Source: Rhizaria sp. SCN 62-66
Lineage: Eukaryota
Length of the DNA: 46,781 nt
Assembly (NCBI GenBank): GCA_001724265.1
Contig: MEDY01000235.1
Coordinates: 1-46,781 of the forward strand
Reading direction: 5' to 3'
The notes below the pieces were generated by a model, which had not been told where the DNA came from, searched no databases, and saw nothing but the letters and a program-made list of their open reading frames with translations. Below are positions 6,394 to 46,250 of this stretch, in pieces (position 1 is the first letter of the stretch; the number at the start of each line of letters is the position of its first letter). The position numbers were made by a program, and so were the translations under genes.

Positions 6394-6871
6394 GGGCGGG
6401 CTGGTCAGCGATGCGAGAACGAGTAGGTTTGCGTGTAAAGTAAAAGTTGTGAGCTGAGTTGGAATGAACTCTTTGAATGAAGGAGGGTCAGTTCTAAAGT
6501 GATTTTAAGTGTAAATTGTTATGTTTGAGGCGCAACAGAGCTCTTTAAGTACTATATGCGAAGAAAAGGTCCTCATGAATACATCATCAGTGTCATAATT
6601 GTATATTTCTTTCTTTGACCGCTGTCGCAGGGCACAACGGATACTTGCTTGTTGAGAGCTTGAATGATAATGTTGGTATCAAACGAGTTTGATCGTCAAT
6701 ACGAATATGTTTTCAATACTCAGACACTTCACGAGTTATTATATACTCCCGTGATTTCATAGTTGAGGTTCAGCGATATAGACAGTATAATCCACCTTCA
6801 ATCTTCCCCACTCTCCCACTATCTTCGACCTGATCGCTTTGTTGTCATTTTGTTTCGTTTTCCAGGCGCGC

Positions 6872-12678: not shown

Positions 12679-15600
12679 TTACTGTTGCGCAAGCTTGGCA
12701 CGCTTGATAGCAGCCTTCGCAGCGTCGGGGGCACCAGTTGCCTTCTTCTTAAGACGCACGGGAGCGTCGCCATCCGCATCGCCACCCTTTGCGCGCGTCG
12801 GGAGAGCGATATTGACACCATGAGCCTCGGAGTAAAGCGCAAACCAGTTCTCAAGCTCGCCGATCACGGCGCGCACTGCGCTGTCGCGCTCTGGAGAGTG
12901 CGGCGCCTGCGTCACGGCGGAGTGCGCCGTCGCCAACAGCTACAGAAGAAAAAGGTCAGAGTGAGGAAGCATGAATTGATGTTTGTGTGTGAGAATAAAT
13001 CAAAGTGGCAAATAGATTGAGTCATCTGAAAATCGATTGCGTTGAAAGTGAAGTTGACTGAAGTGCGATGACATACCTTGTAGTGTAGCGCCTCAAGCGC
13101 GCCGACGTGCGCGACGCCTTCGAGGCGCGCGACAAGGTCTTGCAGACGGCGCCACAGCGCGGGCGTGATCACCGCCTGCTGCAGCGCCGCGCCCGCCAGC
13201 GCCTCACTGGCCAGCGGCGCGGGCAGCGCGCCCTTGCTCGCGGCAGCCTTGGCAGCCTCGGCCTCGGACTTCTTGTCCGCGGCCTCTGCGGCCTCTGCGG
13301 CCTCGATGGCGGCGGCAGCGGCGGAGGCGGTGGCGTCCAGAGCCTGCGCCTCGTCGCGGCGGCGCGCGAGCTCGCGCTGGACCTCGGCCTCGCGCGCGCC
13401 GGCCTGCAGGTGCATCAGCGCCGGGTTAGGCACGAAGATGAGCGAGGGCCACGGCACGAAGCCTTCGGGCTGCGTGCGGAGCCGGTGCGCGACTAGCTCG
13501 CACGCGAGCGCGACCTGCGAGTCAAGCCCCAGACACAGAGTCAGCGCGCTGTCCTGTAGGTTGCACGCGCGGTTCACCAGCGAGCGGCCGTGCGGCGTGG
13601 CGAGCGAGTACGCCTGCTTGGTGTTGGCCACCAGCAGGTCGATGTCAGACAGGAACTCGCGCACCGAGAGGTAGCGCGCGTCGTTGACCTTGAACTGGAT
13701 GTCCTTGAGGTAGATGGGCGCGAGCAGGTTGCGGTACGCCACGTCGTCGCGCGGCTCCTCGATGAAGTCGCGGTAGTTCTGCAGCAGGTGCGCGGCGACG
13801 GAGCGCAGGAACATACGCAGGTGCAGCAGCAGCACTTCGTCCTGCTGCTGCTGCTGCCGCTTCTTCTCCGCGCGCTCCTCGTCCTCCTGCGTCTTGATCG
13901 ACGCGGCCACCCGGCGGCCGCTGAACTCGCCGCTCTCGTCGGCGCCGGCAGCGGCGCTCGCGCGATCACTCTTCGTCTTGCCGTCGCCGCTCGCGTCGTC
14001 GGTCATCGCGGTCTTGACATCCTTGCTGTCACCATGCGCACGCGCACTGCTGCTGCTGCTGCTGCTGCTCGCGGCGTCTGCGGAGACGGCCGCGGCATCG
14101 TCGGCCTTCTTCTTGGCCTTCTTGGCGACGGCGGCGGTGGCCGTGACCGGCGCGAGCAGCACGTCTAGCGCCGCCTGCGCGACCGCGCTTTGCCTCAGCG
14201 CCGCGCACCACGCGTCAGCACCGGCGCCGATCTCGCTCTTAACACCCCCGGCGCCGGAGCCCGCGCTCGACTCGGCCTTGACGAGCTCGACGTCGTCATC
14301 ACTGCCGGCCTTCGCAGCAGCAGTAGCAGCAGCGGCAGCAGCCGTGTTATTGCGATCGTCGCCGTCGCTGTTGAAGCTCTCATCCTCGCCGTCACCCTGC
14401 GCGAGCGTGGCGGCGGCGCGCGGGGTCCAGAGCCCCGAGCCGAGCCCGACACCGGCGCCCGAGGCCGTAGCGCAGTCGAAGAAGGCGGCGACCTCGTTGG
14501 GCAGCTCGGCGGCCGCGCACTCGGACCAGCCGACCACGTACACGGGGCTCTGCGGTGGCAGGTCCGACAGCATCATGAGCACGACAGTGCGCAGCGCCGC
14601 CGACGCGGAGCCCCACCACAGGTCGATCTGCGGCCAGTAGAGTACGCTGGGCGCGTTGCGGCGCGCCTCCGTAATGGCACTGGCCGCCGCCTCCTCGGGC
14701 CCGCGCGCGGTGAAGTCGGCCAGGAGCGCGGGCAGGTGCAGCGAGAAGAGAGGGAAGTCGTCCAGCCGGTGCAGCAGCGCCGCCGCCAGCGCCGCCTGCC
14801 CGTGGTCAGGCGCGCCGTGCAGCAAGAAGCGCGGACGGAACACGGCGCCCTCGCCCGCGGGCGTGCTGCCGGCATCGATGATCGCGCTCCCGGCGGCCGC
14901 GCCCGCCGAAGGCTGGCCACTGGCTTGCGCGGACTTAGGCAGACAGCCGCGCGGGAAGAGCGCGTCGCTCGCGGCGCGCACGCGGCGCCACACGGCGTCG
15001 AGCGCGCGGTCCAGCGGCGGCGCGAGGCGCGCGGCCGGGGACGGCGTGGCGCGCTGCGGAGCGGGCGTGATGGCCTGCATCGCGGCCAGGAAGTCCTCGC
15101 GCGTCACCACCAGCGCCTGCGCGGCGGCGTTGAGCGCGCGCGTCAGCGTGGCCGAGCCCGCGGCCGCGCCTCCCGCGGCCGCCGCGCCGCCGGGGCCCTT
15201 GCCCAGCGCCTGCTGCGAGTAGAGCTGCGGCATACAACGGCGCACGGCGCGCAGCGACGCCTCGGTGCACAGCGCCTTGAGGTCGGCACCGCAGTAGCCG
15301 GCCGTCTTGGCGGCCAGCTCGGCCAGCAGCGGTGGCGCCACGGCGGGCTGCCACGCGCGCGTGTGGATGCGCAGGATCTCCTCGCGCGGACCCTGCGCGG
15401 GCAGCGCGAAGAGCAGCTCGCGGTCGAAGCGGCCGGGGCGGCGCAGCGCGGGGTCGATCGCGTCGACGCGGTTCGTGGCGCCAATGACAATGACCTGGCC
15501 GCGCGCGTCTAGCCCGTCCATGAGCGCGAGCAGCGTCGACACGATGGACGAGTGCACTTGGTCCTGGCGCGAGGAGCGCACAGGCGCCAGACCATCGATC

Positions 15601-17237
15601 TCGTCGAAGAAGATCACCGAGGGCTGCATCTCGCGCGCTTGCTCGAACAGCAGGCGCAGCTGGCGCTCGGCCTCGCCAACCCACTTGGACAGGCAGTCGG
15701 CACCCTTGCGGATAAAAAAGGACACGTTGCGGCCCGAGAGGCGCGAGCACGTGCTAGCAAGCGCGCGCGCCGTGAGCGTCTTGCCCGTGCCGGGCGGGCC
15801 CGTGAAGAGCACGCCGCGCGGGGGCGTGATGCCGAAGCGCGAGAAGAGCGCAGGGTACAGCAGCGGCATGACGACCATTTCGTACAGCGCCTTGAGGTGG
15901 CTGTCGAGCCCGCCGACTGAGTCGAAGCCGACCTGCGCAATGGCGCCCGTCTGCGCTGACATGGCGTCCGTGTCCGTGTTGAGCGGGCCCTTGCCCGCTG
16001 CGGCCGCCGCGCCGCCGGGCCCCGCGGCCGAGGCGGCGGCCGCGATAACTTGCTGCGTCACCTCGGCCAGCACGCTCGCCGACGACGGCGGCATAGGAGG
16101 GTAGCTCGCGAACATCACGCCCGGGTTCGCGAAGCCCAGCGCAGAGGGATCCACCGTGCCGCGCGCCAGCGCGTCTGCTGCGCTGCCCCTGCCGCCAGCG
16201 CCGGCGCCGGAGCCGCCGGAGGAGGAGGACGAGTTGGTGCGAGGGCCCCCACCGGCGGAGCCGCGGCCGGGCGCGGAAAATACGCCCGACTTGGCGATGG
16301 TCTCGGGCATCACTTCCTCGCCCGCCGAGGTCGAGTCGCCCTGCAGCTGGTAGTGGTCGTCGGGCGCGTGGAACGACGACGCGGCCAGGCCGCCGCCGCG
16401 CTTGCTACTGCTGCCGCCGCCGGCCGCAGACTGGCGGCCGCGCAGGCGCCGCGCGGGGCGGTCGCTCTCGCTGTCATGCTTGCCGCGGGCGTTGCCGCCG
16501 TCGTCGTCCTCGTCGTCGTCCTCGTCGTCGTCGTTGAGGTGGCGGCGAGACGAGCGGCGGCTGCCACTGTTACTGCTGTTGCTGCCGCCGCGGGCGCGCC
16601 GCGGACCGTTCTCACTGTCATCTTCGTCGTCGGCATCGTCGCGGCCCCGCGCGCTGCGACGGCTGCTGCGCACGCCGCTGCTGTTGCTGTTGCCGCTCGC
16701 GTTGCGCCCGCTGCGGCGCGGCGCGGCGGTGTACTCCTCCTCATCGTCATCGTCGTCGACGTCGTCGTCGTCCTCGGTCGAGGAGGAGGACGACGACACG
16801 GCATCAGAATCGAACTTCGCGTCGATGTCGCCCATCGAGTGCGTGGCGTTGCGGCGCCGGCCCATGCGCGGGCCCCTGGGCTCGTCGGCGTCGGTGGCAT
16901 ACCCGCTGCTCTCGCTATCGCTCTGGGTCGCCTGAAAGGGGCGGAACGCGGCGACTCCGGCACCGGGGGCGGCGGGCGCGTAGCGGAGATTCTTGACGAG
17001 CTCGCCGGCGAGAACCAGCCGCAGCTCTGGCAGAGGCGCGCCTGCGCCGTCGACCGCGACGGGCTTGTCAGCGCCGCCGTCGGGGGGTTTGCTGTTGTTG
17101 CCACGTTTCGCTTCATCCTCACTCTCATCGTCGTTCAGGGCGGTGCGGGAGCGGCGCGCGGGGACGCGGGCGGCGTCAGAGTCCGAGGCGGACTAGGAAG
17201 ACTCAGCCGCAATGCTGCGGAGTCCCTTGGCCTTCAT
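12679..17237 (-). CDS. ATAD2: ATAD2/Yta7/Abo1-type AAA+ ATPase with bromodomain; exons 17237-13077 and 12939-12679; in-frame TAG at 17195-17193; ~1473 aa
   Basis: Walker A GPPGTGKT, RKGADCLSKWVGEAERQLRLLF, Walker B IFFDEIDGLAPVRSSRQDQ and DPALRRPGRFDRE, then a degenerate second AAA and a bromodomain-like segment. Intron 13076-12940 (GTATGT...TGTAG). The coding-like frame continues upstream of the track's ATG 16865, through one TAG, to ATG 17237. Ends at TAA. Confidence 0.88.
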
Positions 17238-18490: not shown

Positions 18491-21325
18491 ATGAGTGTCG
18501 CTTCACATGACAAAACACGCAGCTCCATGTCCAACGTGCATCTCGCGGTGGCGAACAGGCAACTGCCAACTCTGATTGCAAACGTGCAGATGTCGTCTGG
18601 CACGGTGACGCCGATGAACCTCGACCCGCTGGTGCGCGAGATGCTGCTCGAGTTGAGCGTGGCCGAAGCGGCTGACGCGGGCGACGCGAGCGCCGCAGGC
18701 GACGTACGGCCGCCGCGGCCGCTGGCGCTGTCGACGCTGTCCCAACAAGCGCAGCTTGTGATTGACTCACAGGGCGTCTCGGACGGCGTGCGTGAGGTCC
18801 GTGCGCGCGCCGTGAGCTTGATCTCGGACCTTCTGAATAAGAAGTATTCGGGCAAGTACACTGCCGTTGTCTTTGGTTCGACTGCGTGGGACATCGACAA
18901 CAACACCTCCGACGTGGACGTGTCGATTGTGCAGACGAGGAACTTGGCGCCGCTGAAGTTCGCTGACGCCAAGAGGGTCATCAACCAGTTCTGCCGCGAG
19001 ATCAAAGACTCGCTCCGGAACTCGCACGAGCTCTTCGTTTACAACGTGCTGTCGCACACACGCGTGCCCGTGTCGACGATGTACTACTACCACAACAACA
19101 CGCGCGTGCAGCTGCAGGTGAGCTCAACCACGGATCACGTGAACGTCAAACTGCACCTCATCTCCCGTCTTCTGCGCGACTACCCCGTGGCCGTGCAGCT
19201 TTTCAAGGCCATCAAGGTGTGGGCCAAAGCGCGCTGTCTCATCAACTCCCGCAAGCGCTTGCTCAACTCGTTTTCGCTCTTTCTGCTCGTAATCCAATAT
19301 CTCCAGCTGCGCGTTAAAAACCCGCTCGGCGTGATCCAGCCCGCGCCGTTCGCGTACGCGCACACGAACGCTGCCAGCAGCAGCGACATCCCCAAGTTCG
19401 AGCTCGTCGACCTCGCGAGTCCCGCTACTGAAGAAGCCGCTGCGGCCGCCGTGGCCAAGCTGCCGCACTATCTCATAGTCTGGGACTCTGCGGCAAACGC
19501 GATGCAACGCATCGAAAGCGGTTCGCCAGCCGTGCGCCGCGCCATCGCAGCCGTCACGAAGACTTCCAAGAGCTACAGCTTATTGCTTGCCGCTGACGCG
19601 AGGGTCGACAAGAGCGGTGGGAACTACGACGAGGCCCACGTCGACGACGTTGACGACGACGACGAGAACGAGTACGAGGATGAGTACGACGACGAGTGCG
19701 AAGATAAGTACAAGGACGAGAGCGAGAGTAAGGCAGAGGTTGATGACGGAGTTGCGCCCACACCCAGTCCACAGGCCGATGACAAGCTAGTAAGCTACAG
19801 CTCCCTCGTCCGCTCCTATGACAGTCTCGCTTCAGTGCCGTCGCCTGCAGCGTCACCGCCTGCCTCAGTTGCGGCGGCGTTGATGCCTGCTGCACAGAGC
19901 CCGAACTATACCAAGAGCAACTGCTACGGCCACTCCATTGCGCAAACCGTGCGCGAGCACCTTGAGAAAAACCGCGTTTTCTTCGGCCCCATCGTCGGCG
20001 GCGCCCGCGCCATCGTATCGCACTCGAACGGACACTTGTTCGACGCGCAACCTGCTGAATACAAGCTGGACATCCTCGACGCTCCTCGCCCCGCGCCCGA
20101 GTCGATCGCGGTCGCTCGCGCAATGGAGAGCAGTGAAACTGCGGCTCAGCTGGGCGATGACCAAGAGGATGATGGCAGCCTAGGGGCATTAGTTAAAGGG
20201 TTCTTTGCGTTTTACGCAACAGCCTTTGATCCCGCTGTGCACGCTGTTTCTATCCGACAAGGCCACCTTGTCTGGCGCCAGCCGCTGCTTGATCGGACTC
20301 TCGGCTACTCTCAAGCGTGCGTCCCTATCTACAGGGAGAACTCTCAAACCTGGACTCTGGAGGGGACAATGCGCAGTCAGTTCAAGGGTGTCGACTGGCG
20401 GAGCGCGGAGCTGGTTATTGAAGACCCCTTGTCGGCTGTTGACAGTAGCGCGCGCTCGCTTCACGCGCACCGCAGCAAGACCATCTGGACCGAGCTGCGG
20501 CGCGCGCACGCGCTGCTGTCCGGCTCCAGTGCCAGCTACGAGACAGTCGTTTGCGAGCCGCTCAGCAAATCACTCACGCGTCTGCACCAAGTCGTGCGCA
20601 AGTGCGCAGGCGCTGACGCGGTTTACGACGCGCACCACGACGACCACAAGCCTGGAGGCGACTCCACGCCTTATACTGCGACGTCAGCGCTGTATGAGCT
20701 GCAACTTTCGGGCTTTCTCCGTCATATGTGTGCATTTTCGGCGGCAATAGTGAAGAAGCAGCGCGAGGTAAAAGTGCCAGTCACACACCGAGACCTTGTC
20801 GCTTTGCGCGCGCAGGAGGACTTTAAGCGCCAGCAGCGCGAGCAGCGCCTCAACGCCCGGCGCATGTAGCGCGAACTGCTGCTCCAGCCACTCCTTCAAC
20901 AGCAGCGCCAAGAGCACGAAGGGCTGCAACAGGAGTATCTCTACTGGCAACAAGATATTCAAGAACAGCTTGAGCATGGGGCTTTTCCTTATCACCTGTA
21001 TCTTCAGCAGCAACAGTACCTCCACAAAAACTTCCTCCAGCAGCAGCTACAACTCATTAAGCAACAGCAGGAGCAGAAGAAACAGGAGAAGCTGCTGCTG
21101 CAGAAGAAAAACCAGCAGCAGTTTCAGCTCTGGCTGCCGAATAATCTGAATCAGCAACAACTGCAGCCGGTCAAGCCCACAGTTCCCAAGCAGCAGCTCT
21201 CGCAAAAGCAGCCTCCGCAACAGCTGCCCCCGCAACAGCCCCCACAGCAACAACAGCGGCAGCAGTGGAAGCCGTTCTTTCCGAAGAACTGGCAGCCGTT
21301 TTATCCCAAGCAGCATCAAAAGTAA
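18491..21325 (+). CDS. Non-canonical poly(A)/poly(U) polymerase family (Cid1/GLD-2/TUTase-like) paralog 1 with Q-rich tail; in-frame TAG at 20867-20869; ~944 aa
   Basis: VFGSTAW...SDVDVS nucleotidyltransferase motif, IKVWAKAR, LNSFSLFLLVIQYLQ, and PAP-associated LGALVKGFFAFYA...VSIRQG...IEDPL. The frame continues past TAG as RELLLQ... to TAA 21323-21325, collinear with paralog 2. ATG chosen by alignment with paralog 2. Confidence 0.8.
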
Positions 21326-22675
21326 CAACACGACCTACGGCAACAATAACAACAATATCTGTCTCAAGAGCAGTTGCAACTCACTCGCAACCGCAAATAC
21401 AGAAATTGCAGTGCCGAGCGATGCAGTGATGCAGTGAGCACTTGCGCAATATTTTTGCTGACATTCAGACGCATGAAGCAATTCTTACTTCTAATTTACG
21501 TAATCATTTGTCTAATACTTGCAGATATGTCACAATTATATTCATACGAACGTCACATGTTGACATTGTGCTTTCTTATAGCATGTACACCTGTACGTTT
21601 TTTCATTTTCACTGTGCTAGTCAACCGACTCAGTCTCAATACAGAACAAGGGCGTAATAAGAAATCATTGACATAGAAAGCATAGTACTGATATTCTATG
21701 TCTTCAAAGTTATTGTTTTCACATGTGATTGACGAAATTGCGCAGAAGACAACAAAACGTGGGAGTAACACCGAGTAAACTATAACAAGATTTAATGCGA
21801 TTACGTCGTGCTTCAGCAATCAAGTGTTGAACTATTGGTACTAGTTGAGCTAAAATCACGGTTTAATGAAAACATTGTAGTTTGCGCTTCGTAATATCAG
21901 CAGCGATGTAGAAGCATTTGGTACTCCTACCGCCGAGGACGAATTTCTACATATACTACTAATATAGTAGTAACAGTCATAATGCAGTCTGCGAATTTAT
22001 ACTGCGCTGTGATATCATGGTGGCTCCTGTGTCATCTTGCACGAGCCCTCTCGGTTCGGCGACCGTGATCACGGGTGACCGTGAAGCTGTGAACGCGTAC
22101 ACGCTTGAACATGGTGACTGTCCACAGCCGTCACGTCACTCAGTAGGTCAACCGCAAGGCGAGCAGTTGCGTCACTTTTGTACAAGCATGAATGTAGGAT
22201 TTTGATCGTCAGAGAGAATTTAGGTTGTTTTATTACTTTTGAATGACTTATCTTCATGTTAATTTTAATCTTTATTTTGTAGAGAGTCATTCTGTGATCC
22301 AGGGTTGGACCTACAATCCTGCATTTAGCTGTGAAGCTGGAACTGTGCTTTCCACCAATATTACATCTGCCTAATTCGACACCAAGGCGCAAGACCGTAG
22401 AGCCTGGCTCAATTCAAAGGTTTTCCACATAGACACCGCACGATGCATGCATTGGATTACGCTACCCTCGTGGATTTGATGCTTAGTGAGCTTCGAATCC
22501 ATGAGTGTCCACTCAGTGCCACCTGACTCATCATGATCACTCCTTGCTCACGACACTGTATTGCGATGAAAAGAAATTTTTACTTGCCTTACTCATTTTC
22601 CAATCCCATGTTGATACGCCTTTCTTTGGTTAGTTTTTTTCATCCGAGGCTGCGAGCTGCGCGCGTAATCATCCC

Positions 22676-25645
22676 ATGAGCGCCGCTTCGCACAATGGCC
22701 ACTTGTCCGCCAAGCAGCTTGCAATTGCCAACTCGAATCTGTTAACGATGATTGCAAACGTGCAGATCTCGTCTGGTACGATTACGCCGATTGATCTTGA
22801 TCCCCGGGTGCGTGACATGGTCCTAGAACTCAGCGTGGCAGACGCGGCTGAGTTGATGCCGCAGCCGTTATCGATGTCTGAGCTTTCTCGTCAGACGCAC
22901 ATCGTGATTGACTCGCAGGCTGTGTCAGACGATGTGCATCTGGGCCGCGCGCTTGCTGTGAAGCTAATCTCAGAGCAGCTACATCGGAAGTACAAGGGCG
23001 AGTACACAGCCATCGTCTTCGGCTCGACGGCCTGGGGCATCGACAACAACGGCTCCGATGTCGACGTGTCGATCGTGCGCACACAGGGCTTAGGGCCATT
23101 GGCGTATCCAGAGGCCAAGAAGGTCATCGGTAATTTTTGCCGCTCGATCAAAGACCGCCGGATTTTTGTCGAGAATGTGCTCACGCACACGCGCGTGCCT
23201 GTGTCGACGATGTACTACTACCACGGCGACACGCGCGTGCAGCTGCAGGTAAGCTCCAGCGAGGACCAAGTCAACGTCAAGACGCAGCTTATTCTGCGTC
23301 TCATGCGCGAGTACCCCTTCGCGGCCCCGCTCTTCAAGGCCATCAAGGTGTGGGCCAAGGCGCGCTCTCTCATCAACGCCCGCGAGCACTTGCTCAACTC
23401 ATTCTCACTCTTCCTGCTCGTGATTCAGTACCTCCAGCTGCGCGTCAAGAGCCCGCTCGGTATCGTTCAACCCGCTCCCTTTGCATACGCGCGCAAACAC
23501 AGCAGCGCCGGCAGCGCGCTCTCCGACGAGGAGGAGTTCGAGCTCGTCGACCTTGCGAGTCCCGCGTCGGACGAGGCCGCGGCCGCCGCCGTGGCCAAGC
23601 TGCCGCAGTACATCTTCAGCTCCGAGGCCGCAGCCGGCGCGATGCAGCGCTTCGTGAGCGGCTCGCCCGCTGTGTGCCGCGCCGTCAAGGCCGCGGTCAA
23701 GCTCGTCAGGAGCGGCCGCTCGCTTGCTGCTGCCGCGCAGGTCGCCGCGGGCAGCGACGCCCACGGCGACGCCCACGGCGACGCCGTCGTCGACGACGTC
23801 GAGGACGGGAACGAGGACGCGTACGAAGACGACGAGGACGATGATGAGGTCGCGGCTGAGCCCGAGACCGCGGACGCCGGCGACGTTGAGGACGAGGCAG
23901 AGGAAGAGGCCACCCCTGTGGACCCGGAAGACGAGGCCAAGGGTGCGATCCGCGGCGCCGCGCGTTTTACCGACGACGCCGATGTTGCTGTTGTAGCTAA
24001 GAACACGACCAACAACAAACACACCGCTGCGGAGCTGGACGCGACGTCATCGCTGCTTTCGGATGCAGCGGCATCGCTTCTCGCCGCGGAGGGTCTGCGT
24101 CCTGTGCAAAGCAGACGCGGTGGCAGCTCCATGGCGCAAACAGTGTGCGAGCACCTCGAGCGCCACCGCGTCTTCTTCGGCCCCGTCATCGGCGGCGCGC
24201 GCGCCATCGTTTCACACTCGAACGGGCACTTGTTTGACGCGCAGCCGGTCAGGCACAAGCTCGACGCCTTCAACGCTCCGCACCGCGCACCCGAGTCGGC
24301 CGCGGTCGCGCGCGCCACAGCAAACGACAGCTCTGCGACGGAGCAGCTCAGCAACCAAGAGGATGACGATAGCCTGGGCGCCCTGCTCAAGGGCTTCTTC
24401 GCGTTTTACGCGACCGCCTTTGACCCTGCTGTGCACGCCGTCTCGGTGCGCCAGGGCCACCTCGTCTGGCGCCAGCCGCTGCTCGACAACGCACACGGCT
24501 ACGCGCAGGTCCGCGTTCCTGTGCCCGATCACGGCGCCGTCGTTGAGACGATACCCTGCCGTTTCAAGGGCGTCGACTGTCGCCGCGCGGAGCTGCTCAT
24601 CGAGGACCCCCTTTGCGCGACGGATAACAGCGCGCGCTCGCTTCACGCGCACCGCTGCGCAGCCATCTGGACCGAGCTGCGGCGTGCGCACGCGCTGCTG
24701 TCGGGCTCCGGCGCCAGCTACGAGACAGTCGTCTGCGAGCCACTTAGCGAGTCGCTCACGCGGCTGGTTCAGGTTGTGCGGAGGTCTGCGGGCGCGGATC
24801 AAGCCGCACAGCATGGCGGCAGCAAGCTTGAGCATCATGGCCACTAGGATCCAGAGGACGGCGCTCCGCCTGGAGGAGCGTCGTTGCCGAACGACCAACG
24901 ACAGCTGGTGGGCTTTTTCCGGCATGCGCATGCGCTTGTAACTGCCCAGGTGAAGCTGCAGCGCGATGTCACCGTGCCCGACACGCACCAGGACCTGGTG
25001 AAGTTGCGCACAGACGAAGCATCGCGCAAGCGGGAAAAGCGCGAACAACGTGAACTTCTCAAACAACAGCGGCAGCAAAAGAAGCAGCTTGAGCAAGAGC
25101 ACCTCAATCAGCAGCGCTTGCAACAGCAGATTGAGCAAGGGGATCTTCGTCAACAGCAAGACACCGATCACCAACTCCAATTGCAGAGTCAGCAGCTGCT
25201 TCAGGTGCAGCAACGACAAAGGCAACACCAGCAACAGCATCAAGAACGTAATCAGCCGAAACAGCAACAGCAGCAACAACCCAAGCAGCAGCAACCGAAG
25301 AAGCAGCAGCCGAACCAACAGCAGCGAAACCAGCAGCAACAACAACCGAAGCAGCCGCCGCAGCAACAGCAGCAGCAGCAACAAGAGCAGCATAAAAGTC
25401 AACCAAAGAAGCAGCAACACCAGCCGCACCAGCAGCATTTGCCGAAGAAACAACAGCAACAACATCAGCAGCAGCAACAGCAGCAACATCAACATCAACA
25501 GCAGCAACATCAGACACATGCTCGGGAGCAGCCACAGCCGAAGCCGCAGAAGCCTCCACGCCGCGTGATCGAGACTAAAGCCGTGAGCCGTGAGCTCATG
25601 CAGCAGAAGGCTAGTGCGCAAGAGCAGCATTATTTGGATCTATAA
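22676..25645 (+). CDS. Non-canonical poly(A)/poly(U) polymerase family paralog 2 with poly-Q tail; in-frame TAG at 24845-24847; ~989 aa
   Basis: Same motifs as paralog 1. Track ORFs 22676-24847 and 24884-25645 share a frame and are separated only by TAG. The downstream part (QLVGFFRH...QRDVTVPDTHQDLVKLR) aligns with uninterrupted paralog 1 sequence (QLSGFLRH...QREVKVPVTHRDLVALR). Ends at TAA. Confidence 0.82.
25040..25560 (+). repeat. CAG/CAA-rich poly-glutamine coding tract
   Basis: Dense CAG/CAA codons encoding the Q-rich tail of paralog 2. Confidence 0.85.
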
Positions 25646-26388: not shown

Positions 26389-26669
26389 GTGCGCAACATG
26401 GTCTTGGAACTCAGCGTGGCAGACGCGGCTCAGCGGACGCCGCAGCCGTTGTCGCTGTCCGAACGTTCTCGTCAAGCGCAAGCTCGAATCGATTCCCACG
26501 CTGTGTCGGATGACGTGCGCACGGGACGCGCGCTTGCCGTGGAGCTTATCTCACGTCATCTAAACCATAAATCAAAGGCGAGTACTCTACCATCGTCTTC
26601 GGATCAACGGCTTGGGGCATCGACAACAACAGCTCTGACATTAATGTGTCAATTGTGCTCACCAAATGA
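26389..26669 (+). pseudogene. Truncated, frameshifted third copy of the nucleotidyltransferase gene
   Basis: VRNMVLELSVADAA...GRALAVELIS closely matches paralog 2. There is a 1-nt deletion near 26572, then GEYSTIVFGSTAWGIDNNSSDINVSIV (DVD changed to DIN), then TGA and AT-rich DNA. Confidence 0.85.
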
Positions 26670-27204: not shown

Positions 27205-30200
27205 TTAATACAACTTCATCTCATGTGGGTTAAACGCAAGATCGACATCAATGCCTTGCCTGCGCTGCACGCCGCTGTACCGCGCGCACCACGGGCAGCA
27301 CGGCAGCTCGGCCACCTCCTTCGTGAAACGCTCCGGCTCCGTCACGGCCATGGCGATAACGGCGTCGACAGTGGTTTTCTTGGCCTCGGCCAAACGTACC
27401 ACGCGCTCCTCCTCGGCGGCCTGCGCACGCTCGACGCGGGCCACGTACAGCGCGTCCGCGCGCGCAAGAGCGACACGACCAACATGCGTAGACTGCAGCA
27501 GCGCCTCGACGCCGTGATGCTCATGCGTCGCGAACAGGCCGGCCAGTCCCAGCTCGCGCGCGGACTGCAGCGCGGCGGCGTCGACCGCGGCGTCGTCCTC
27601 GTCGTACCAGTCGTCGCCGCTGTCGTTCTCGCTGTCGCTGCCGCTGCTCGAGCTGCCCGGATCGCCATCGCCGTCGTTGTCTTCCGTGCCGCTCGCCACC
27701 GCAGACGCCACCGCGAACGGGGACGCCAACGCAGCAGCGGATGCCGACGCAGACGCAAAGGCAGACGCAGCGCCAGAGCCGGCGTCGCCGGACGTCTTCC
27801 CGCCTGAGGTACCATCGGCACTTACGGCAGCGTGGTCGCTGTGATCCTCGGCGTCCTCGTCGTCGCCCTCTGGGATCGCGTGCGCGACGGCGTTGCTGCC
27901 GCCCGCGGTGCGGTATACGCTCTGCTTGCGCGCCAGCGCCAGCGGGCCCGCGCCTGCGCCTGCGCCGGCCTCGCCCGCGGCGGTCGCGGGGGACGCGGCG
28001 GCGACGCCGGAGAGGTCGACGTGCGGGAGGTCCGAGTGCTCCGCGTGCAGCGGCAGCAGCCCGCGCACGACCATGGAGCGCACGTTACTCTGGTGCACCC
28101 CCGCGACCTCGGCGGCGTCCACGCGGCGGCGCGGCGACAGCGGCGAGAGCGGTGAGAGCACGCCTTCCGCGCCACCAGCGCCGATGCCCGCGTTCACGCT
28201 CAGCGCCAGGCCCAGCGGCGGCGCGCCGCTCGCACTGAGAGTGGCGTTCGCGCCGGGCGTGCCGCTGGACGCGGCGAAAAACGCGCTGCGGCCGGCGCCT
28301 GCAGCGGCGCCGGGGACGGCAGAGTCCGCGCCCGTCGCACGCGGCGGCAGCAGCGAGACGGAGGAGAGCGTGAGCGCGCGATGGAAAGATGGCGCGGACG
28401 CAGACGGCACAAGACCGCTGCCGCCACCAGACACACGCAGGCCCTTGGCCGTGGCAGTGGAGCCTGTCGCCGCATCAACGCCGTCGCCGAGTGTCACAGC
28501 TGCGGTGGCAGCGGCATCGCCGTAGGTTTCGGCGTCAGCATCAGCGTCTGCGATCAGGTCGCCGTCACCGTGCCCACCGGCCGTGAAGGGCGCAATGCTG
28601 ATCGTGTTGTGGCGCTGCATCAGGTCCCTGACCGCGCCGCGGTCGCGGCTGCGCAGACGCGACTTGCGCGACGAGCCGTGCTGCTCCTGGCGGCGCTTTT
28701 GGTGCATCGCGGAGAACTCGGCCATGTGCAGGTCGACGACGCGGCCGAGGTCCTTAAGCTCGTTCGCCAAGTCGTCAAGCATGTTGCTCTTGCCGGTCAC
28801 GCCCGCGGGCACGCCGCCCGCCTCCGCGGGTGAGGCTCCCGTTGCGGCCACACAGGCAGGATCGGTAGACGGCAGTGCGGGCGTAGCGTCAGGGGGAGAG
28901 CCGGGCGAGGTCGCGGGCGCTGGTGAGGCCGCGCCTGCAGAACTCGCGGCGATGGTGCCAGCGGGCGCGACGGGCACAGCGGTGACCGCCGCCGTAGCGG
29001 GTGCGTAGCCGAGGCGTGCGGCGGCGTTGTCAAGGCGCGCGATGGCGTCCGCAGTGGAAACAAAGCCGCCGCGCTCGTCGTCGCCGGAGTAGAGCGCGGC
29101 CGCCAGCAGCGCACGCTTGTGCTGCGCCTTGCGGGTACGTTCCTTGTGCAGCAGCGTGAGCACAAAGACAGTGTACGCGATAAGAATCACGACGATTACC
29201 CCAAAGCCGGTAAAGAACATCGCATTCCACTGGTTGATCTCGGCGTACGAGTCGTCCGTGCCCTCTTGATGCGCGCCCTGGTTAGCGAACGCAAGCACCG
29301 TCAGCGCGGACCAGGAGCCGAGCGTAAAGGTGATGATCTTGACCGCGTCCACGACGGGCTCCGAAGACGGCATGAATTCCTGCGACACAGTCTGTGAGCG
29401 CTGCGGCGAGAGCAGCGCCTGGTGCGGCGCGCTCGAGTGCGCGGGCACCGACGGCGGCACCGACAGGTTGAGGTTCAGCGCGGAGCCCGCGGAAGGGTAG
29501 TACATCAGGCCCCCGCCCGCGACGGCCGGTGACGACGGGGCCGCGGGCGTCGGCGGCGCGGGCAGCGGGCCCGTGCACGGCGACAGACGCCCGCCTGTCC
29601 CGCTGCCGGCAGTGGCGGTGGGAGCAAAAGCGTTCGCGGTCGTAGTGGCGCCAGCGGGCGTGCGGGCGGGCGCGCGCGGCGGCAGGCCCTGTCCGCGCGC
29701 GCTAAGCGGCAGCGCGGCGTCGGGGCCGGCGTGCACGGCGGAGCCCGGGGCCGGGATGGGCTTGGGGCTGGCGAGGCTGATCGAGGTCGCGCCCGTCGAC
29801 GGCGAGAGGGGGAAGTACGGCCGCTGCGCGCTGCCGGGCGTGCGCGCCGTCGCAGTCGCGGAAACGTTCGGAGCGGGAGCGCGCGGCAGGGGCGCCATCT
29901 CGACATCACCGGCGCGCTTGGCCGGGCCGCGGCGCTGCGTCTGCTGCGGCTGCATCTGCTGCTGCTGTTGCTGCTGCTGGAGCTGCGCGTACGTGAGGAT
30001 CGCCGGCCGCTGCTGCTGCTGCGACGGCGCAGAACGGCGGCGGCCCGGGCCGGAGACAGCGGTCGATGAACCGGGCCCACCGGGCGCGACGAAGTTCGCG
30101 TCCGACTGCGCAGCGCCGTCGTGTTTGCGGCGCGTGAGCAGACGCGGCGAGAGCACCCAGACGAGCGTGAGAATGCACAGCGCGAGCGAGAAAACGAGGA

Positions 30201-33200
30201 TCCACGCCGCGCCGCCGTGCGCGTTGCCGCGGAGCAGCGCGACGTAGCCCGCGACGCAAAGCCCGCGCACTGCCGAGACCATCATGGCGTACTTGTGGTG
30301 CGTCGTCAGGCCGCTGATCTGCGGAGCGTTGAGGTGCCACAGCCGCCGCGAGGTCTCCACCCACAGCGAGAAGGCCGCCTCGGACGACAGCGGCGCCGCC
30401 GCGGCGGAGACCAGCTTGCCACCCGCCGCGCTGACCGCGCGGCCGTTGCTGCTGAGGGCGGCGTCCGGGGAGCTGGCGCCATCGGAGAGTGAATCGCCCG
30501 TAAGCGCCTGGAGGTAGGACCGCAGCAGGGCCTTGCGGCGCGCGATCTGGACTTCGATGCGTAGCAGTGCGCCGGCGAGCGCAATGTTGGGGTGCAGCAG
30601 CGTGGTGATGATGAGGAAGTACACAGCCGAGGCAAGCATGACAACCGAGAGCGCGCGGTATGCCTCGCTGCCCGCAGGCCAGCATACTGCCGAGAACTGC
30701 ACGTTGGCGCCGAGCCAGGTGCACGAGATGGGATGCAGCAGGTGCCAGAGCACGAGCATGGGCAGCGTGTCGCAGATAAAGCCAGCGACGCGGCGAACCA
30801 AGGGCGAGACGATGTCGACGCGCAGGTGGCCGTGGCCGAAGAGCAGCGAGCCCGTGAGCGACATGAACAGGTACTGCTGCGCCAGGATAGGCCGCTGGCG
30901 CCGGTGCCGCAGCACCAGCCACGCGCGCACATCGAGCAGCAGCTGCAGCGCCAGCGTAGCAAGGAGCAGTGCGACGAGCCCGAGCGAAACCCAAGCCATG
31001 ACAGGCGCGTTGGTCAGCGAGTCGACGTTGCCGACCGCGTCGCGCGTGACGCCGTAGCTGTCACCGTCGGGCGCGTACGTCAGGAACACGGCGTTGTGCA
31101 GCGCGCGCGCCCACGTGGGCGGCAGCGAGCCGCGCAACGTGCCGTGCGTGCGGTTCGAGTCATCTGAGTAGAACGAGAAGGTCGCCGTGGCCCACAGCAG
31201 CAGCTCGTAGCATAGGCAGAGCACGACCCACGCGCCGGGCCCCGTGGCGGACCCGGGCCACGCGGAGCAGCGCGAGGGCCGCACGAGGTTGCCGTGCTCA
31301 TCCACATCGCGCACGTCCTGTTTCTCGGGGATCTCAAGCCCCTGAGCCGCGGCCTCGAACCGCGCGTCTGCGACCCGCAGCTGCCGCGTCGAGTAGCAGC
31401 ATCGCCAGCCCCATCGCCACGCCGTGGCAGCAAATAGCGCCTCGTCGCGGCCCTCTCCGCCGCCGCCCGCGGCGCCGGGGTGCGCGGAGGCCGAGGAGCC
31501 CGGCAGCGCAAGCGGCACGCCCGCGGCGCGCGCGGCAGCCGCCAGTGTGTCGACGTCCTTGCCCGTCCCGACCACGCCCAGCGGCAGCATCGGCAGCGCT
31601 GAGTACGAGGTTTCGCGGCCCGCGCCGGGCACCGCGCTCACCGCGCCCGCGCCCACGGCCACGGCCACGGGGCCCGCGCCCGCGGAGCCGGCGCCCCGCG
31701 AGGAGCCCGCGGCCACGGCGGCCGCGGCCGCGGCGGCGATAGGGTCCGTGTAGACGCTCTGCGGGGCCGCGCTCGCAATGGCGGCGGCGGCAGCAGCCGA
31801 GTTGGCCGCGTTGGCGTCTGCCGCGCTCGTGCTAGCCGCGTGTTGATGATGGTGGCCGAGGTAGGGCGGTGTGGGCTGCCGCGACGCTGCACCCGAGTTA
31901 GAGCCCGCGCCGACCCCAGCCGCGGCGGAGCCAGCGGCGCTGCCGGCGCTGGCCGAGCTGCCGTAGCTGCGCCGCTTGGGGCCGAGCCCGCCAGCGCCAG
32001 CACCGGAGCCACCAGGGCCGTTCACAGCGCCGCCAGCGACGGAGACGGCGTCGGCCGAGATCGCATTGGCCGCAGCGCTGTTGCCGGCGCCGGGGACCGC
32101 CGCGGCAAACGCAAGGTTCTCGACGGCAATGTCGTATGTCGTCGCGCGGTACGACTGGCCGTAGGTCGGGATGGCGAAGTCAAGCCGCCCCTGCACACCT
32201 GGCCCTGCGCCGATGCCGCCGCCGCCGCCGTGGGGCGCTGTGGAGTAAGACAGCGAGCGCGACTGCGGGATCGGGCCCGCGCCGGCGCCGGGCGCGTGCG
32301 CAGGCGCCGGCGCCGCGAGGAACGACGACTGCGGCGCACTGGCGCCGGCGCCGGCGCCCGTCGCGGCGGCGAAGGCACTCGCAGTGCCGGTGCCCGCAGG
32401 GTAGGGCAGCGCGAAGTGCTGCTGGCGCAGATGCGCGACGCCGTCACCGGAAAAGCCCAGCGCGGCCGACGCCGCCGCGGCCTCGATGTCTGCGCGCGAC
32501 CGCAGGCCCACCGCGCCCCCTCCGGCAGTAGCGCCCGCAACGGGGTTGTAGCTGGCGTTCGGGCCTAGCTGGTCGGCGAGCTTGACGCGCGCGGCGGCCG
32601 GGAGCGCAGCCGCAGAGCCGCCGGTGACGAGCGCGTCCGTATACGACGGTTGCCTGCCGCCGTTGGCTCCCGTCGCAGCGCCCGCCATGGAGGAGGCCGA
32701 GACCGCGGGGCTGTTGGCCGCGCTGGCCGAGGCGGCGGCGGGCGGCACAAGAGCGAAAGCCGCCATGAGCGACAGCTGCGGCTGCTGCGGCAGCAGCGCG
32801 CCGTGCCGCGGCGACTCGTCGTGCACCGCGCCACCGCCGGCTCCGCGCGAGAGCGCGGCCGCGGCCGCGGCGGCGGCGGCGGAGCCCGGCGGGAGGCTGG
32901 AGCTGGAGCCGGCGCGCGTGCCCGGCGCGGTGCCGCCGTTGCGCGCGGCCTTGGCGGCGAGCACCGCAGCCGCGTACGCCTCCTGCTCCTCCAGCGCCAG
33001 CGTGCGGTTCAGCCCCGCGCGCGGCGCCGCGGGCCCGCGCAAGCGCGAGCCGGACACGAGTGAGCCGCCGCCCGAGAGGCCCACGCCGCTGAGGGCCGGG
33101 GACAGCGCCGCCCTGCCGGGGCCCGCGACGCCGCCCACGGCGCTGCTGTTGCTGCCGCCGGCGCCGGTCGTCGCGGGCGCGATTGTGATGGTCAGCGCGC

Positions 33201-36200
33201 CCACGCCCGGGCCCGCGCCCGTCGCGCCGCCAGAGCCCGCGCCGGCCGTAAGCGCGTCGCCGGTGCCGCTAGCAGCGCCGGAAACGGTGCTGATGGCGCC
33301 GGCGTTGCGGCGCTGGCGGCGGAGCGCGGCGGGCCCGTGCTTACGCGTGTAGCGCATGGCGGTGATGCAGGCGGCGGCCATGACGAGCGCGATAACGACA
33401 ACGTAGACGCCGATGGACGTCTGCGCGCGGACCCAGGACACGGCGGTTGGGTCGTGCAGGATCCCGTAGACGGCCGCAATGGGGTAGCCCACGAGCACGA
33501 GCACGGCCGGGACGGCGCAGACGAGCAGGTGTGCGATGTTGACGCGGTGCTTGGGCGCGCGCACGGGCTGCAGCATGCCGCGCACGACCTCCTGAATGCG
33601 GATCGCATAGTGCGTCTCGGGGATGAAGAAGCGCATGGCGTAGGCGGGCAACAGCACGAGCACGAGCAGCAGCATCACCAGCGGCACCAGCACCACGCTC
33701 GACAGCGCGAACAACACGTCGTCCTGCGTCTCCAGCGACACGCAGCCACAGATGTCGCCGCGCGGACCGCGCCGGCTCGCGCTGCCCTTGCGCCCCGCCC
33801 CGGTCACGCCGTGCTTGCCTACGGTGTGGCTGTGGCTAGCCCGATGCCGCCCGTGGCCCGCGCCCACGCCGGCGCTGTGGTCGAGGCCGTCGTGCCGCGA
33901 GTGGCGCTCTCTCGCTCCAGCGCCACCGTCCGCGGAATCGGCGCCAGTGCCAGCGCCAGAGCTGGGGAACGCAGCAGCGCCCGCAGCGGGTCTGTTGCTG
34001 GCGTGACCCGCGCTCGCCTCCTCATCGTCGTCGTCGTCGTTGTTGTTGGCGGTCTGCTGTCGCAGCAGCCGCGCGCGGCCGCCAAACCCGATCACGGAGG
34101 CCACGTTGATCGATGCCGCGCGCTCGCGGGCCGCTGCGGCCGCCACGGAGGGTTTGTGCTGCAGCGCGGGCGCGGCGGCCGCGTCGGGCTGCGTGGTGTT
34201 GCCGGCTGCGTCCTTGCCCGCGAAGCCGGCGCCGGAGCCCGCGCGCGCGCTGCGGGTGGAGCCGGGCGTTCGCGGAGTGGCCGGGGGGGCCGCGCTGGGG
34301 CTGCGCGGGGCAGAGTCGCCCGCGGAGGAGGCCGAGCCCACGCGCACAGACAGCGCCGCCGCACCGGCTCCGGCATCACGCATGCCAGCGGCACCGCCAA
34401 CGGCGGCAGCTGAGGCAGTGCCGGGCGCGGTGTCGAGCGCGATCGCGCCGTCGCCGTTGATGGCAAGGTCCTCGATGTTGCTGGGGCTGTTAAGCGCGTT
34501 GAGGTTGCTGTTGCTCGTGTCGTGGTCGAGGCCGCCGCCGCCGAGGTCCAGGTCATTGACGGCCTGCACCGAGTCCACGTGTGCCAGGTTGTGCGCGAAG
34601 TCGATCGCGTCCAGGAACGACTGTGCGCGCCGCGGAATGCGCCCCGCGCGCGCCGCGCCGTGAGCCTCGTCGTCGCCCTCGTCGCCGTCACCGTGGCCGT
34701 GGCAGTCGGGGTCGTCGCCAGCAGCAGAAATCTTGGCAGAGACTGCGCCAGTCACCACGTCAGAGGCTCCGTGGCTGTCCTTGCGGTGCAGGCTTCTCCC
34801 CTTACCGCTGCTGCTGCCTTTGCCCTTGTCTTTACCAGCGCCGTCGCCGTCGCTCTCGGTGTCGCTGTCAATGTCGTGCGAGCGGCCCTCGGCGCCGTCC
34901 GCCGTGGCGTCGACGTTGCTGCTGATGCGCGCGGCTGCGGCGGCCTCGTACAGCTTCATGCGCGGAGGCAGCGCCGAGTCCGCGCTGGCGCTCACGCTCG
35001 CGGACGCCGTCGCAGCGTGGCCGTGAGCGACGTGGCCTTGGCCGTGGTGGGGCGACAAAGTCACCTACGGCGGCACTGCGGGCCCGTGCACGCGACCGCC
35101 GACACCGGCGCCGGCACCGCGAGTCCCATGTGTCCCATGCGTGCCGTGCGCGCCCCTGTGGCCGTGCGAGTCTGCGACGCTGCTGCCCGAGCTGTCGCGC
35201 AGCAGGTTAGCGACTTCGAAAGCCAGCGCGTCGGCCTCGACGCCGTCCTGCAGCTCCACGTGCCCGTGCGCCACACGCAACCCGCGCGCGCCATGCGCGC
35301 CGTGGTGCCCGTGGTGGCCGTGGGCTGCGGCGGGAATGGCCGCACTGCTGGTGCCGCTGTTGCGCCGGATGAGCGCCGCGGGCCCCATCAGCGGGCTCTG
35401 GCCGTGGCCGTGGGCGGCGGGGGAGGCGGCGAGCGCGGCCGAGTGCGCAGCAACAGAGCTGCCGCCCACCGCGAAGGCGTTGTTGCCCGCGGCGGCGGCG
35501 GCGGATGAGGTCGAGGAGGAGACCGTTGCGGAGCTGGAGTTGCTGACGTCATCGCTGTCGGCGATGGGCGACGGCGAGGGGCCCAGCCCACCCGCAACGG
35601 GGCTGCCGCTGCCGCTCACGCTCACGCCCCCGCCCGCAACGCCGGCGACGCCCGACGCGGCCGGGGACACGTTGCCTATGTTATTGCCGTTGCCGTTGCC
35701 GTTGATGTCATCGTCGCTGAGCGCTGCGGCGTCGTCGTCCTCGTCGTCGTCGGTGTAGCCGTGGGGCGCCATGGAGCGCGGCGCGGGCAGCCCGGGCGTA
35801 ATGCCGATGGCGGCGGTCAGCGGCACGCGCGCCAGGTAGTGGCACAAGTGCGGCACGTGCCGGCCCGTGAGCGCCGACACCTCGAAGTACGGCAAGTCGA
35901 ACGAGCGCGCGAACTGGACGGCCTCAGCGACCGAGACAATGCGCGCGGCCTGGGGCACGTCCGTCTTGGTGGCGACGAGCGTGATGGGCGTGGGCGCAAA
36001 GACGGGGTGGCCGCGGATCGAGCTCACCAGCGCGTCGGCGGCCGCGAAGGACTTTCGCGACGTCACATCGAACACGACGACGACGCCGGCCGCGGCGTGC
36101 ATCCAGGTCGCGCGCAGGCCCAGCGCGTCAGTAGCGCCAGAACAGTCCCAGAGCGAGAGCTTGACGACGAAGCCGTCGATCATGGCCTGCCAGGACCCGA

Positions 36201-36482
36201 AGGCGGTGCCAAAGGTGTGGACGTAGTCGGGGTCGAAGGCCTTGTTCTCGATCGCGTGGATGAGCTGCGTCTTGCCGGACCGCGTGGAGCCTAGCAGGCA
36301 GTATTTAAACTGCGCAAAATAAAACAGCGAGTGAAACGAAATATGTGAGTTTGGGTGCGCTGGATAACGAAAGAGAGAATGTAGATAGCGATATGTGTGG
36401 TGAATGAGGAGAGACGAACCTTGAAGTCGACGAGCTGCTGCTGCACCTCGCCGACACTGCCGACGCTCGCGTCGACCTGCAT
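27205..36482 (-). CDS. Giant protein: N-terminal Ras/Rab-like small GTPase domain, low-complexity regions and multi-pass membrane segments; exons 36482-36420 and 36309-27205; in-frame TAG at 35067-35065; ~3055 aa
   Basis: Intron 36419-36310 joins MQVDASVGSVGEVQQQLVDFK to FKYCLLGSTRSGKT (G1), followed by HTFG, LSLWDCSG, VVVFDVT, LVATKTD and YFEVSA. ORF 35065-36183 abuts ORF 27205-35064 in frame across one TAG, and the latter has no ATG at its start. About ten hydrophobic helices follow. Ends at TAA. Confidence 0.75.
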
Positions 36483-46200: not shown

Positions 46201-46250
46201 AGCAAACCCTCTTCGCAGGCCTCACACAGAGGGCCCTTCGGCGGAGGCAT
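40282..46250 (-). CDS. RAD54: RAD54-family SNF2 DNA translocase; exons 46250-45045 and 44883-40282; four in-frame TAG (41424, 41394, 41331, 40989); ~1935 aa
   Basis: Spliced LRPHQRDGVQFL (intron 45044-44884), ILADDMGLGKTLQ, CDEAHRLKN, LSGTPMQN, RRTNTLLSAHLPPK, LLSSKAGGCGLNLVGANRLVLFDPDWNPAVDKQAAARVWRDGQKK. Track ORFs 41422-44874, 40987-41289 and 40282-40782 share one frame, interrupted only by TAGs. Ends at TAA 40284-40282. Confidence 0.88.
40946..40973. repeat. (GTT)n microsatellite, encoding poly-Asn in the RAD54 frame
   Basis: Run of gtt repeats. It reads AAC in the extended RAD54 frame downstream of the fourth TAG. Confidence 0.75.

Follow-up and report, generated by a model that had tools for sequence, protein, structure and literature searches.

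Whether TAG still terminates translation in the genome from which contig MEDY01000235.1 derives, and which amino acid it specifies if it does not, is the question raised by this locus. The window analysed here, that is, the whole stretch of 46,781 nucleotides (nt; ~47 kb), is one contig for which we built 12 gene models comprising 11,797 codons. Six of these genes contain TAG in frame, at nine sites in total (0.76 per 1000 codons), and they include two tandem paralogs encoding PAP/TUTase-like nucleotidyltransferases, referred to below as P1 and P2. A first-pass annotation of the DNA had concluded from a comparison of P1 with P2 that TAG is a sense codon and probably encodes glutamine (Gln); this conclusion is probably correct, although the evidence offered does not lead to it. 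Our analysis makes it fairly probable that UAG is no longer a terminator and is read as an amino acid, most likely Gln, with UAA and UGA remaining stops, as in a code of the "table 15" or Iotanema type. The first part of this reading, that TAG is a sense codon, is very likely; given that TAG is sense, its assignment to Gln is likely.

Reading frames remain open and coding beyond TAG

The translation of TAG is well supported, since homologous or clearly coding sequence is found in frame on both sides of it and no gene in the window ends in TAG. The 12 gene models terminate at TAA (six genes) or TGA (six genes) and never at TAG, although this is a small sample from one 47-kb window, and internal TAA or TGA codons are absent from all 11,797 codons. 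Downstream of the 12 true terminators, the next in-frame TAA or TGA is reached after 1–61 codons. From the first coding TAG to the following TAA or TGA, we counted 55 sense codons in the NAD(P)H-hydrate epimerase gene (NAXE), 151 in P1, 265 in P2, 379 in the tail of a Rad54-like SNF2 helicase gene, and 2619 in a giant gene that encodes a Ras domain and multipass membrane regions (the Ras-membrane gene). When the letters of each post-TAG segment were shuffled in 5000 trials, the share of trials without an in-frame TAA or TGA was 1.3% for the P1 tail, 0.2% for the P2 tail, 0.16% for the Rad54 tail, and 0.02% for the Ras-membrane gene, in which the next 1000 codons were used.

Codon usage points in the same direction. 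A log-odds score trained on the TAG-free coding parts of the window is negative in all frames for 3′ flanks, intergenic DNA, and the intron of the Rad54-like gene. By this measure, the Rad54 tail yields frame-0 values of +0.81 to +1.23 bits per codon for all segments between and after its four TAGs, with the other frames negative. The 300 codons that follow TAG 35067 in the Ras-membrane gene score +0.87 bits per codon in frame, and the other two frames are again negative. In an ATAD2-like AAA+/bromodomain gene, the 109 codons from the TAG to the next ATG (16865) reach +0.81 bits per codon in frame, with a guanine–cytosine (GC) content at third codon positions of 0.82 and negative scores in the other frames; no AT-rich, intron-like stretch was found around this TAG.

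Homology extends across TAG in several genes. The Ras-domain open reading frame (ORF; 35065–36183 and upstream) stops at TAG 35067, and the ORF of 2619 codons continues in the same frame. Among the 1.84 billion representatives searched, P0098 was the sole distant homologue apart from Ras-domain matches; it is a single protein of 2714 amino acids (aa) with its Ras domain at residues 60–285. P0098 is collinear with the reading through TAG: the Ras domain is followed by four matching blocks (1019–1208, 1538–1961, 2026–2109, and the C-terminal CCxWC). As it matches both sides of the TAG in order, the two halves represent one gene. The linker around TAG 35067 does not align with P0098. TAG 1185 of NAXE falls between the second and the third of three collinear blocks with matches to PDB 1jzt and 2dg2; the relative P0008 carries a longer, uninterrupted insertion at this place. 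A protein search with NAXE gave 87 matches, the best of them 50% identical, among which the TAG-bearing insertion is common only to P0008.

P1 and P2 are indeed paralogs, as the first-pass annotation had recognized; their identity is 62% in the 314 aa aligned by BLASTP and 57% across the MAFFT alignment. It had also stated correctly that their TAGs occupy different sites (20867–20869 in P1 and 24845–24847 in P2) and that the other copy is open at each: P1 reads CAC/AAG at the site of the P2 TAG, and P2 is open across the region of the P1 TAG. The in-frame MAFFT alignment of the two tails persists past the TAG of P1 (GLQQEYLYWQQDIQEQLEHG versus QLEQEHLN-QQRLQQQIEQG in P2), and the P1 tail lacks TAA and TGA in frame, versus one and three in the other two frames. 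For the 67 aligned codons between the TAG of P2 and that of P1, the ratio of nonsynonymous to synonymous substitution rates between the paralogs is 0.32, versus 0.23–0.27 in the two cores.

The nine coding TAGs lie in DNA with a GC content of 0.51–0.75, where splice signals are absent. The base following TAG across the nine sites is C, G, G, A, G, A, A, A, and T, a purine in seven cases, and no common sequence context or flank was found among them. Further TAGs were not counted as coding. One of them (44886) is the 3′ end of an intron, and the others (36510–36858, 22631, 46304, and 5224) are situated upstream of gene starts in mostly AT-rich sequence, with the exception of 36510 (GC 0.66). The TAG at 22631 is a second one in the P2 frame and precedes the ATG within AT-rich sequence.

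Annotation under the standard code shortens half of the genes in the window, and public ORFs are already cut or split at TAG: P0003 ends at the TAG of P1, P0004 at that of P2, and P0007 at the first TAG of the Rad54 tail, while P0095 and P0096 are two pieces of the Ras-membrane gene. P0003 is a variant of P1 that differs by one residue elsewhere, and since the P1 TAG recurs as its end, a one-off sequencing error is ruled out.

A close homologue carries glutamine at the position of one TAG

The amino acid is best indicated by P0005, a 731-aa ORF from a public set that is 84% identical to P2 upstream of its TAG (542 of 647 aligned positions). P0005 reads HHGH-Q-GLEDGAPP where P2 reads HHGH-TAG-DPEDGAPP, which places Gln exactly at the TAG of P2. 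Around this column, 18 of the 20 preceding residues and 7 of the 10 following ones are identical, and past the TAG the two proteins remain 82% identical over 68 aligned positions (56 identical) without a single gap column. Any other residue at the TAG would need a nonsynonymous CAG-to-TAG change at that very site, and the Gln of P0005 therefore lends moderate support to this assignment.

The column from which the first-pass annotation had derived Gln is a different one, pairing the TAG of P1 with a CAA codon of P2. The letters quoted for it are exact (atg TAG cgc gaa ctg ctg at 20864–20881 and gaa CAA cgt gaa ctt ctc at 25043–25060), but aligning the paralogs does not reproduce the pairing. 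The BLASTP alignment ends at REQR, short of the TAG, and MAFFT places the TAG inside a 13-codon insertion unique to P1 (LNARRM*RELLLQ, with the asterisk denoting TAG). Under six gap-penalty settings, the TAG remained unpaired in five and was paired with a different Gln in one. Forcing it onto the CAA at 25046–25048 yields a best alignment 5–9 BLOSUM62 units under the optimum; the difference roughly disappears only when TAG:Gln counts as a match, that is, by a circular argument. The proposed column hinges on one of several near-equal solutions for a low-complexity R/E/Q/L stretch, one that standard aligners do not select. Treating the P1 insertion as an internal duplication (REQR / RM*R), which pairs TAG with CAG, was rejected as too weak, since the stretch is rich in CGC/CAG and only 9 of 12 bases match.

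The sequence contexts of TAG narrow the choice in part. Those quoted previously are present in the translations (SS*SAS in the ATAD2-like gene at 17195; DN*DDG, SG*SSS, and KT*SER in the Rad54-like tail), and the description of polar, disordered surroundings is true of all nine coding TAGs. Such surroundings fit Ser, Glu, or Lys as well as Gln, however; they argue against Leu, Trp, and Tyr, not against Ser, Glu, and Lys.

P0005 itself has a mosaic relationship to the paralogs. Alignment columns 596–645 (50 columns) are 84% identical to P1 and 58% to P2, and elsewhere P0005 is nearer to P2, a pattern that suggests gene conversion among the paralogs. A scan of bacterial and archaeal contigs with the paralog alignment gave 18 pattern matches and no relatives.

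Evidence against reassignment and alternative readings

Several observations weigh against reading TAG as an established Gln codon, the first being its rarity. From position-specific composition, 140.5 in-frame TAGs are expected, together with 20.5 TAA and 16.1 TGA, so that the nine observed make TAG about 15 times rarer than expected; TAG accounts for 1.7% of TAG, CAG, and CAA combined, below the usage level of ordinary sense codons. This rarity is unlike that in known organisms with UAG = Gln, and the codon could perhaps be only tolerated rather than fully reassigned. As TAG makes up about 79% of the expected stop triplets, composition favours it, and the fact that all nine in-frame stop triplets are TAG is weak evidence by itself. 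None of the nine lies inside a Pfam-matched stretch, which leaves no conserved column to fix the amino acid. The NAXE TAG pairs with Val in P0008, in a stretch that is not conserved, and the assignment to Gln depends on the single close-homologue column of P0005. CAG to TAG is the commonest route to a nonsense codon. A Ser codon directly follows five of the nine TAGs. Taken alone, the shuffle test is not significant for the short NAXE (29%) and ATAD2 (37%) segments, which consequently rest on homology and codon usage. Within the Gln-rich tails of P1 and P2, the codon-usage score does not discriminate between frames 0 and 1, as the CAG/CAA repeats become AGC/AAC when read one frame on; it is thus uninformative there, and we relied on the absence of stops and on homology.

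Some of these points would equally suit a TAG that is sense and specifies another amino acid, such as Ser, Glu, Lys, Leu, or Tyr, which we consider unlikely. The lack of TAGs in conserved columns and the Ser codons that follow five of them, in Ser-rich tracts, are compatible with this alternative, as is the frequency of codons one step away from TAG (307 TCG, 452 GAG, and 331 AAG among the 11,797). Nuclear codes with UAG = Leu and UAG = Ser are also known (PMC5304391; PMC11687900). However, the close-homologue column shows Gln within a well-conserved neighbourhood, the contexts at all nine sites are at odds with Leu, Trp, and Tyr, and Ser neighbours are expected for any codon in Ser-rich tracts and tails.

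There is also a small chance that TAG is a leaky or ambiguous stop that is still seen by eRF1 and is read through by near-cognate tRNAs or depending on mRNA position, yielding short and extended proteins. Its rarity in frame, 15-fold below composition, would be in line with this, as would the restriction of TAGs in P1, P2, the Rad54-like gene, and the Ras-membrane gene to tails and linkers that follow the main catalytic domains; moreover, ambiguous stop/sense codes have been described in ciliates and Blastocrithidia. Against it stands the finding that none of the 12 genes terminates at TAG. The four TAGs of the Rad54 tail would multiply the inefficiency of readthrough, NAXE and the Ras-membrane gene need the conserved part that follows their TAGs, and termination at codon 15 would abolish the ATAD2-like protein. 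A purine after a stop codon creates a strong-termination tetranucleotide context, not a leaky one, and this is what seven of the nine TAGs have. Programmed readthrough in particular is contradicted by the lack of a sequence context common to the nine sites and by the presence of more than one TAG in a gene.

A standard code, with the TAGs representing nonsense mutations in decaying genes or assembly errors, is hardly credible. CAG to TAG being the commonest nonsense change, the Gln of P0005 at the P2 TAG could be taken in this sense; redundancy between the tandem paralogs is conceivable, the window does hold a true pseudogene in the form of a third copy, and TAG is the in-frame stop triplet that composition by itself favours most. 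Yet 6 of the 12 genes would have to be broken within 47 kb with no frameshift and no TAA or TGA in 11,797 codons. Coding signal, purifying selection, and homology persist past the TAGs, the TAG of P1 recurs in the variant P0003, and the true pseudogene fragment (26389–26669) looks different, with a truncation, a frameshift, and a TGA. Removal or alteration of the TAGs before translation, by small in-frame introns or U-to-C RNA editing, is similarly improbable: although introns exist in this genome, one of them ending in TAG (44884–44886), and although TAG 35067 is followed by GTGACT and TAG 17195 is preceded by TCTTCC, the real intron is 161 nt long with a GC content of 0.32 and stops in all frames, whereas the nine TAGs lie in GC-richer DNA flanked on either side by coding usage and lacking any paired GT…AG of plausible length, and a TAG ending an exon would stay in the mRNA.

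Proposed decoding of UAG and its possible origin

On the favoured reading, the window would stem from the nucleus of a eukaryote whose genome is rich in GC and poor in introns and which decodes UAG as an amino acid, most likely Gln. Decoding would need a tRNA with the anticodon CUA, which probably arose from tRNA-Gln(CUG), in the simplest case as a mutated copy; only a tRNA(CUA) could be expected to read UAG while ignoring UAA. The release factor eRF1 would probably be altered as well, with weaker recognition of a G in the third position. A tRNA(CUA) together with a changed eRF1 is the mechanism predicted for such codes (PMC5304391). No tRNA genes and no Rfam matches were found in the window, and its genes do not include one for eRF1. 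Since TAG is rare and occurs only in poorly conserved stretches, the pattern fits a young or weakly used reassignment.

A more specific scenario, which we put forward tentatively and regard as rather doubtful, is that of a lineage still early in the capture of UAG and belonging to none of the ciliates, fornicates, rhizarians, and green algae. Here, UAG would have been lost as a terminator and decoded probably as Gln while being avoided about 15-fold, and TAG would be tolerated only in disordered linkers and tails. Named NAXE matches are mostly from stramenopiles and green algae. In the NAXE tree, in which the deeper forks are weak, the window groups only with P0008 and P0010 (support values of 97 and 90). 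The named diatoms and ochrophytes fall outside this group, and the window does not group with the named green algae either. Were this scenario true, the window would capture stop-codon reassignment at a living, intermediate stage. The genome is GC-rich, and in such a genome the loss of UAA would be the more expected course on theoretical grounds. The low usage of TAG could show how a reassignment begins.

Gene content and features of the window

The window contains eukaryote-type genes on both strands, and GC content in 2-kb intervals ranges from 0.50 to 0.76. In addition to the genes treated above, all of which have Pfam matches (the ATAD2-like gene, the two PAP/TUTase-like paralogs, the Ras-domain giant, the Rad54-like SNF2 helicase, and NAXE with its YjeF_N domain), Pfam identified an acyl-CoA thioesterase, a SNARE-like protein, an Rce1-like protease, a zf-MYND/TPR protein, and a PQ-loop protein. 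Coordinates of the features discussed are listed in Table 1.

Table 1. Positions of the TAG-containing genes and associated features in the window.
Feature	Position	Strand	Details and basis
NAXE/YjeF_N (NAD(P)H-hydrate epimerase), last exon	1015..1770	-	One in-frame TAG, TGA end; Pfam
NAXE in-frame TAG	1183..1185	-	Insertion between two conserved blocks; PDB 1jzt/2dg2 blocks
ATAD2-like AAA+/bromodomain gene	12912..17237	-	From ATG at 17237, TGA end; Pfam, 5′ region
ATAD2-like in-frame TAG	17193..17195	-	Codon 15, context SS*SA; coding score
Paralog 1 (P1), PAP/TUTase-like nucleotidyltransferase	18491..21325	+	944 aa through one TAG, TAA end; Pfam MTPAP-like_central, PAP_assoc
P1 in-frame TAG	20867..20869	+	Codon 793; then 151 sense codons, TAA
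Paralog 2 (P2), same PAP/TUTase-like family as P1	22676..25645	+	989 aa through one TAG, TAA end; Pfam
P2 in-frame TAG	24845..24847	+	Codon 724; then 265 sense codons, TAA; Gln in homologue P0005
P2 CAA (Gln), earlier proposed partner of P1 TAG	25046..25048	+	Pairing not chosen by BLASTP, MAFFT, or six gap settings
Degenerate third paralog fragment	26389..26669	+	5′-truncated, frameshift near 26575, in-frame TGA 26667–26669; tblastn with P0005, P2, P1
Ras-membrane gene: Ras-like GTPase domain, low-complexity linker, multipass membrane regions, C-terminal CCxWC	27205..36321	-	One TAG, TAA end; Pfam Ras
Ras-membrane in-frame TAG	35065..35067	-	Between Ras domain and next 2619 codons; coding score, shuffles
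Rad54-like SNF2 helicase, exon 2, with Ser-rich tail	40282..44883	-	TAA end; Pfam SNF2-rel_dom, Helicase_C
Rad54 tail TAG 4 (KT*SE)	40987..40989	-	Coding score
Rad54 tail TAG 3 (SG*SS)	41329..41331	-	Coding score
Rad54 tail TAG 2 (DN*DD)	41392..41394	-	Coding score
Rad54 tail TAG 1 (EV*SN)	41422..41424	-	Coding score
Rad54 spliceosomal intron, 161 nt	44884..45044	-	GTGCGT…TTTTAG, GC 0.32; TAG 44884–44886 is the 3′ splice site
Rad54 exon 1	45045..46250	-	Joined to exon 2 over the intron

The intron of the Rad54-like gene, the one certain spliceosomal intron of the window, joins …WLRPHQ to RDGVQFLCEC and holds two, three, and five TAA or TGA triplets in its three frames. Being AT-rich amid GC-rich exons, it indicates that introns here are AT-rich islands. 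The ORF at 44979–46250 (− strand), which has no Pfam match, belongs to exon 1 of this gene. A protein search with the Rad54 tail returned only the window's own shortened ORF and hence no columns, and an atlas search with the Rad54 core returned broad SNF2 clusters only.

The degenerate fragment downstream of P2 is homologous to residues 9–105 of P0005 and is followed by AT-rich DNA. With this third copy, the PAP/TUTase-like family forms a tandem array of three; the fragment is a real pseudogene and serves as a comparison case within the window. P1 and P2 together use CAA for 74 of their 206 Gln codons (Gln-rich tails at 20870–21322 and 25058–25642), versus 28 of 313 in the other genes.

The protein encoded by the Ras-membrane gene comprises ~3000 aa, with long Ala/Gly/Ser-rich linkers and several membrane-spanning blocks. 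Exon 1 of NAXE, corresponding to YjeF_N model positions 2–59, lies within 2044–2478 (− strand), and this gene has a further low-complexity insertion of ~114 aa that separates conserved block 1 from block 2. The likely 5′ leader of the ATAD2-like gene contains a short upstream ORF (ATG CAG CTC TTA CAA CGT TGA) at 17463–17439 (− strand). The ORFs at 6839–7909 and 7909–8499 (+ strand) overlap by one base (TGATG), with the Rce1-like match in the second only; they may belong to a single gene interrupted by a frameshift or small intron.

Comparison with known UAG reassignments

Nuclear codes in which UAG alone has been reassigned are few; those found in the literature are from Iotanema, a rhizarian, Scotinosphaera, some phyllopharyngean ciliates, and Protocruzia (PMC5304391; PMC11687900). 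In the literature searched, we found no report of a UAG-only reassignment for a stramenopile, a labyrinthulomycete, or another GC-rich, intron-poor lineage, although a published description may exist.

The fornicate Iotanema spirale reads nuclear UAG as Gln and retains UAA and UGA as stops. In this species, 204 in-frame UAGs are reported from 126 genes; of 28 hyperconserved UAG positions, 22 are Gln, and the terminators number 104 UAA and 15 UGA (PMC5304391). The window resembles I. spirale in that UAG is the only stop codon with a sense meaning, UAA and UGA terminate, no gene ends in UAG, and a tRNA(CUA) with a changed eRF1 is predicted. It differs in having nine TAGs in 12 genes (11,797 codons), none of them in a conserved column, in its equal use of TAA and TGA as terminators (six each), in its high GC content, and in that Gln is the likely rather than the established amino acid.

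UAG is likewise reported to encode Gln in the phyllopharyngean ciliates Hartmannula sinica and Trochilia petrani and in Protocruzia tuzeti; in Hartmannula and Trochilia, it constitutes 18.5–31.8% of Gln codons and occurs in 78–84% of genes (PMC11687900). As in these organisms, UAG alone would be reassigned in the window, probably to Gln, and UAA stays a stop. Unlike in Hartmannula and Trochilia, TAG amounts to 1.7% of TAG, CAG, and CAA and is found in 6 of 12 genes; and unlike in these two and Protocruzia, the window consists of conventional chromosomal DNA bearing multiple genes, with exons rich in GC and a spliceosomal intron.

Other UAG-only codes assign a different residue, namely, Leu in the rhizarian exLh and in TARA ciliate metagenome-assembled genomes and Ser in Scotinosphaera (PMC5304391; PMC11687900). 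These share with the window the decoupling of UAG from UAA and the retention of UAA and UGA as stops. The good column in our data shows Gln, in contrast to Leu or Ser, although most TAGs of the window lie in Ser-rich tracts, so that Ser is possible. With ambiguous stop/sense codes and programmed readthrough, as described, the window has in common a stop codon within an open functional frame and the location of TAGs in tails and linkers. It differs from them by the lack of a common context or downstream motif, by up to four TAGs per gene, by a TAG at codon 15, and by the absence of TAG terminators. Overall, the window matches the UAG = Gln type in terms of which codons stop translation, and it departs from this type in its low TAG usage and its GC-rich, intron-poor genome.

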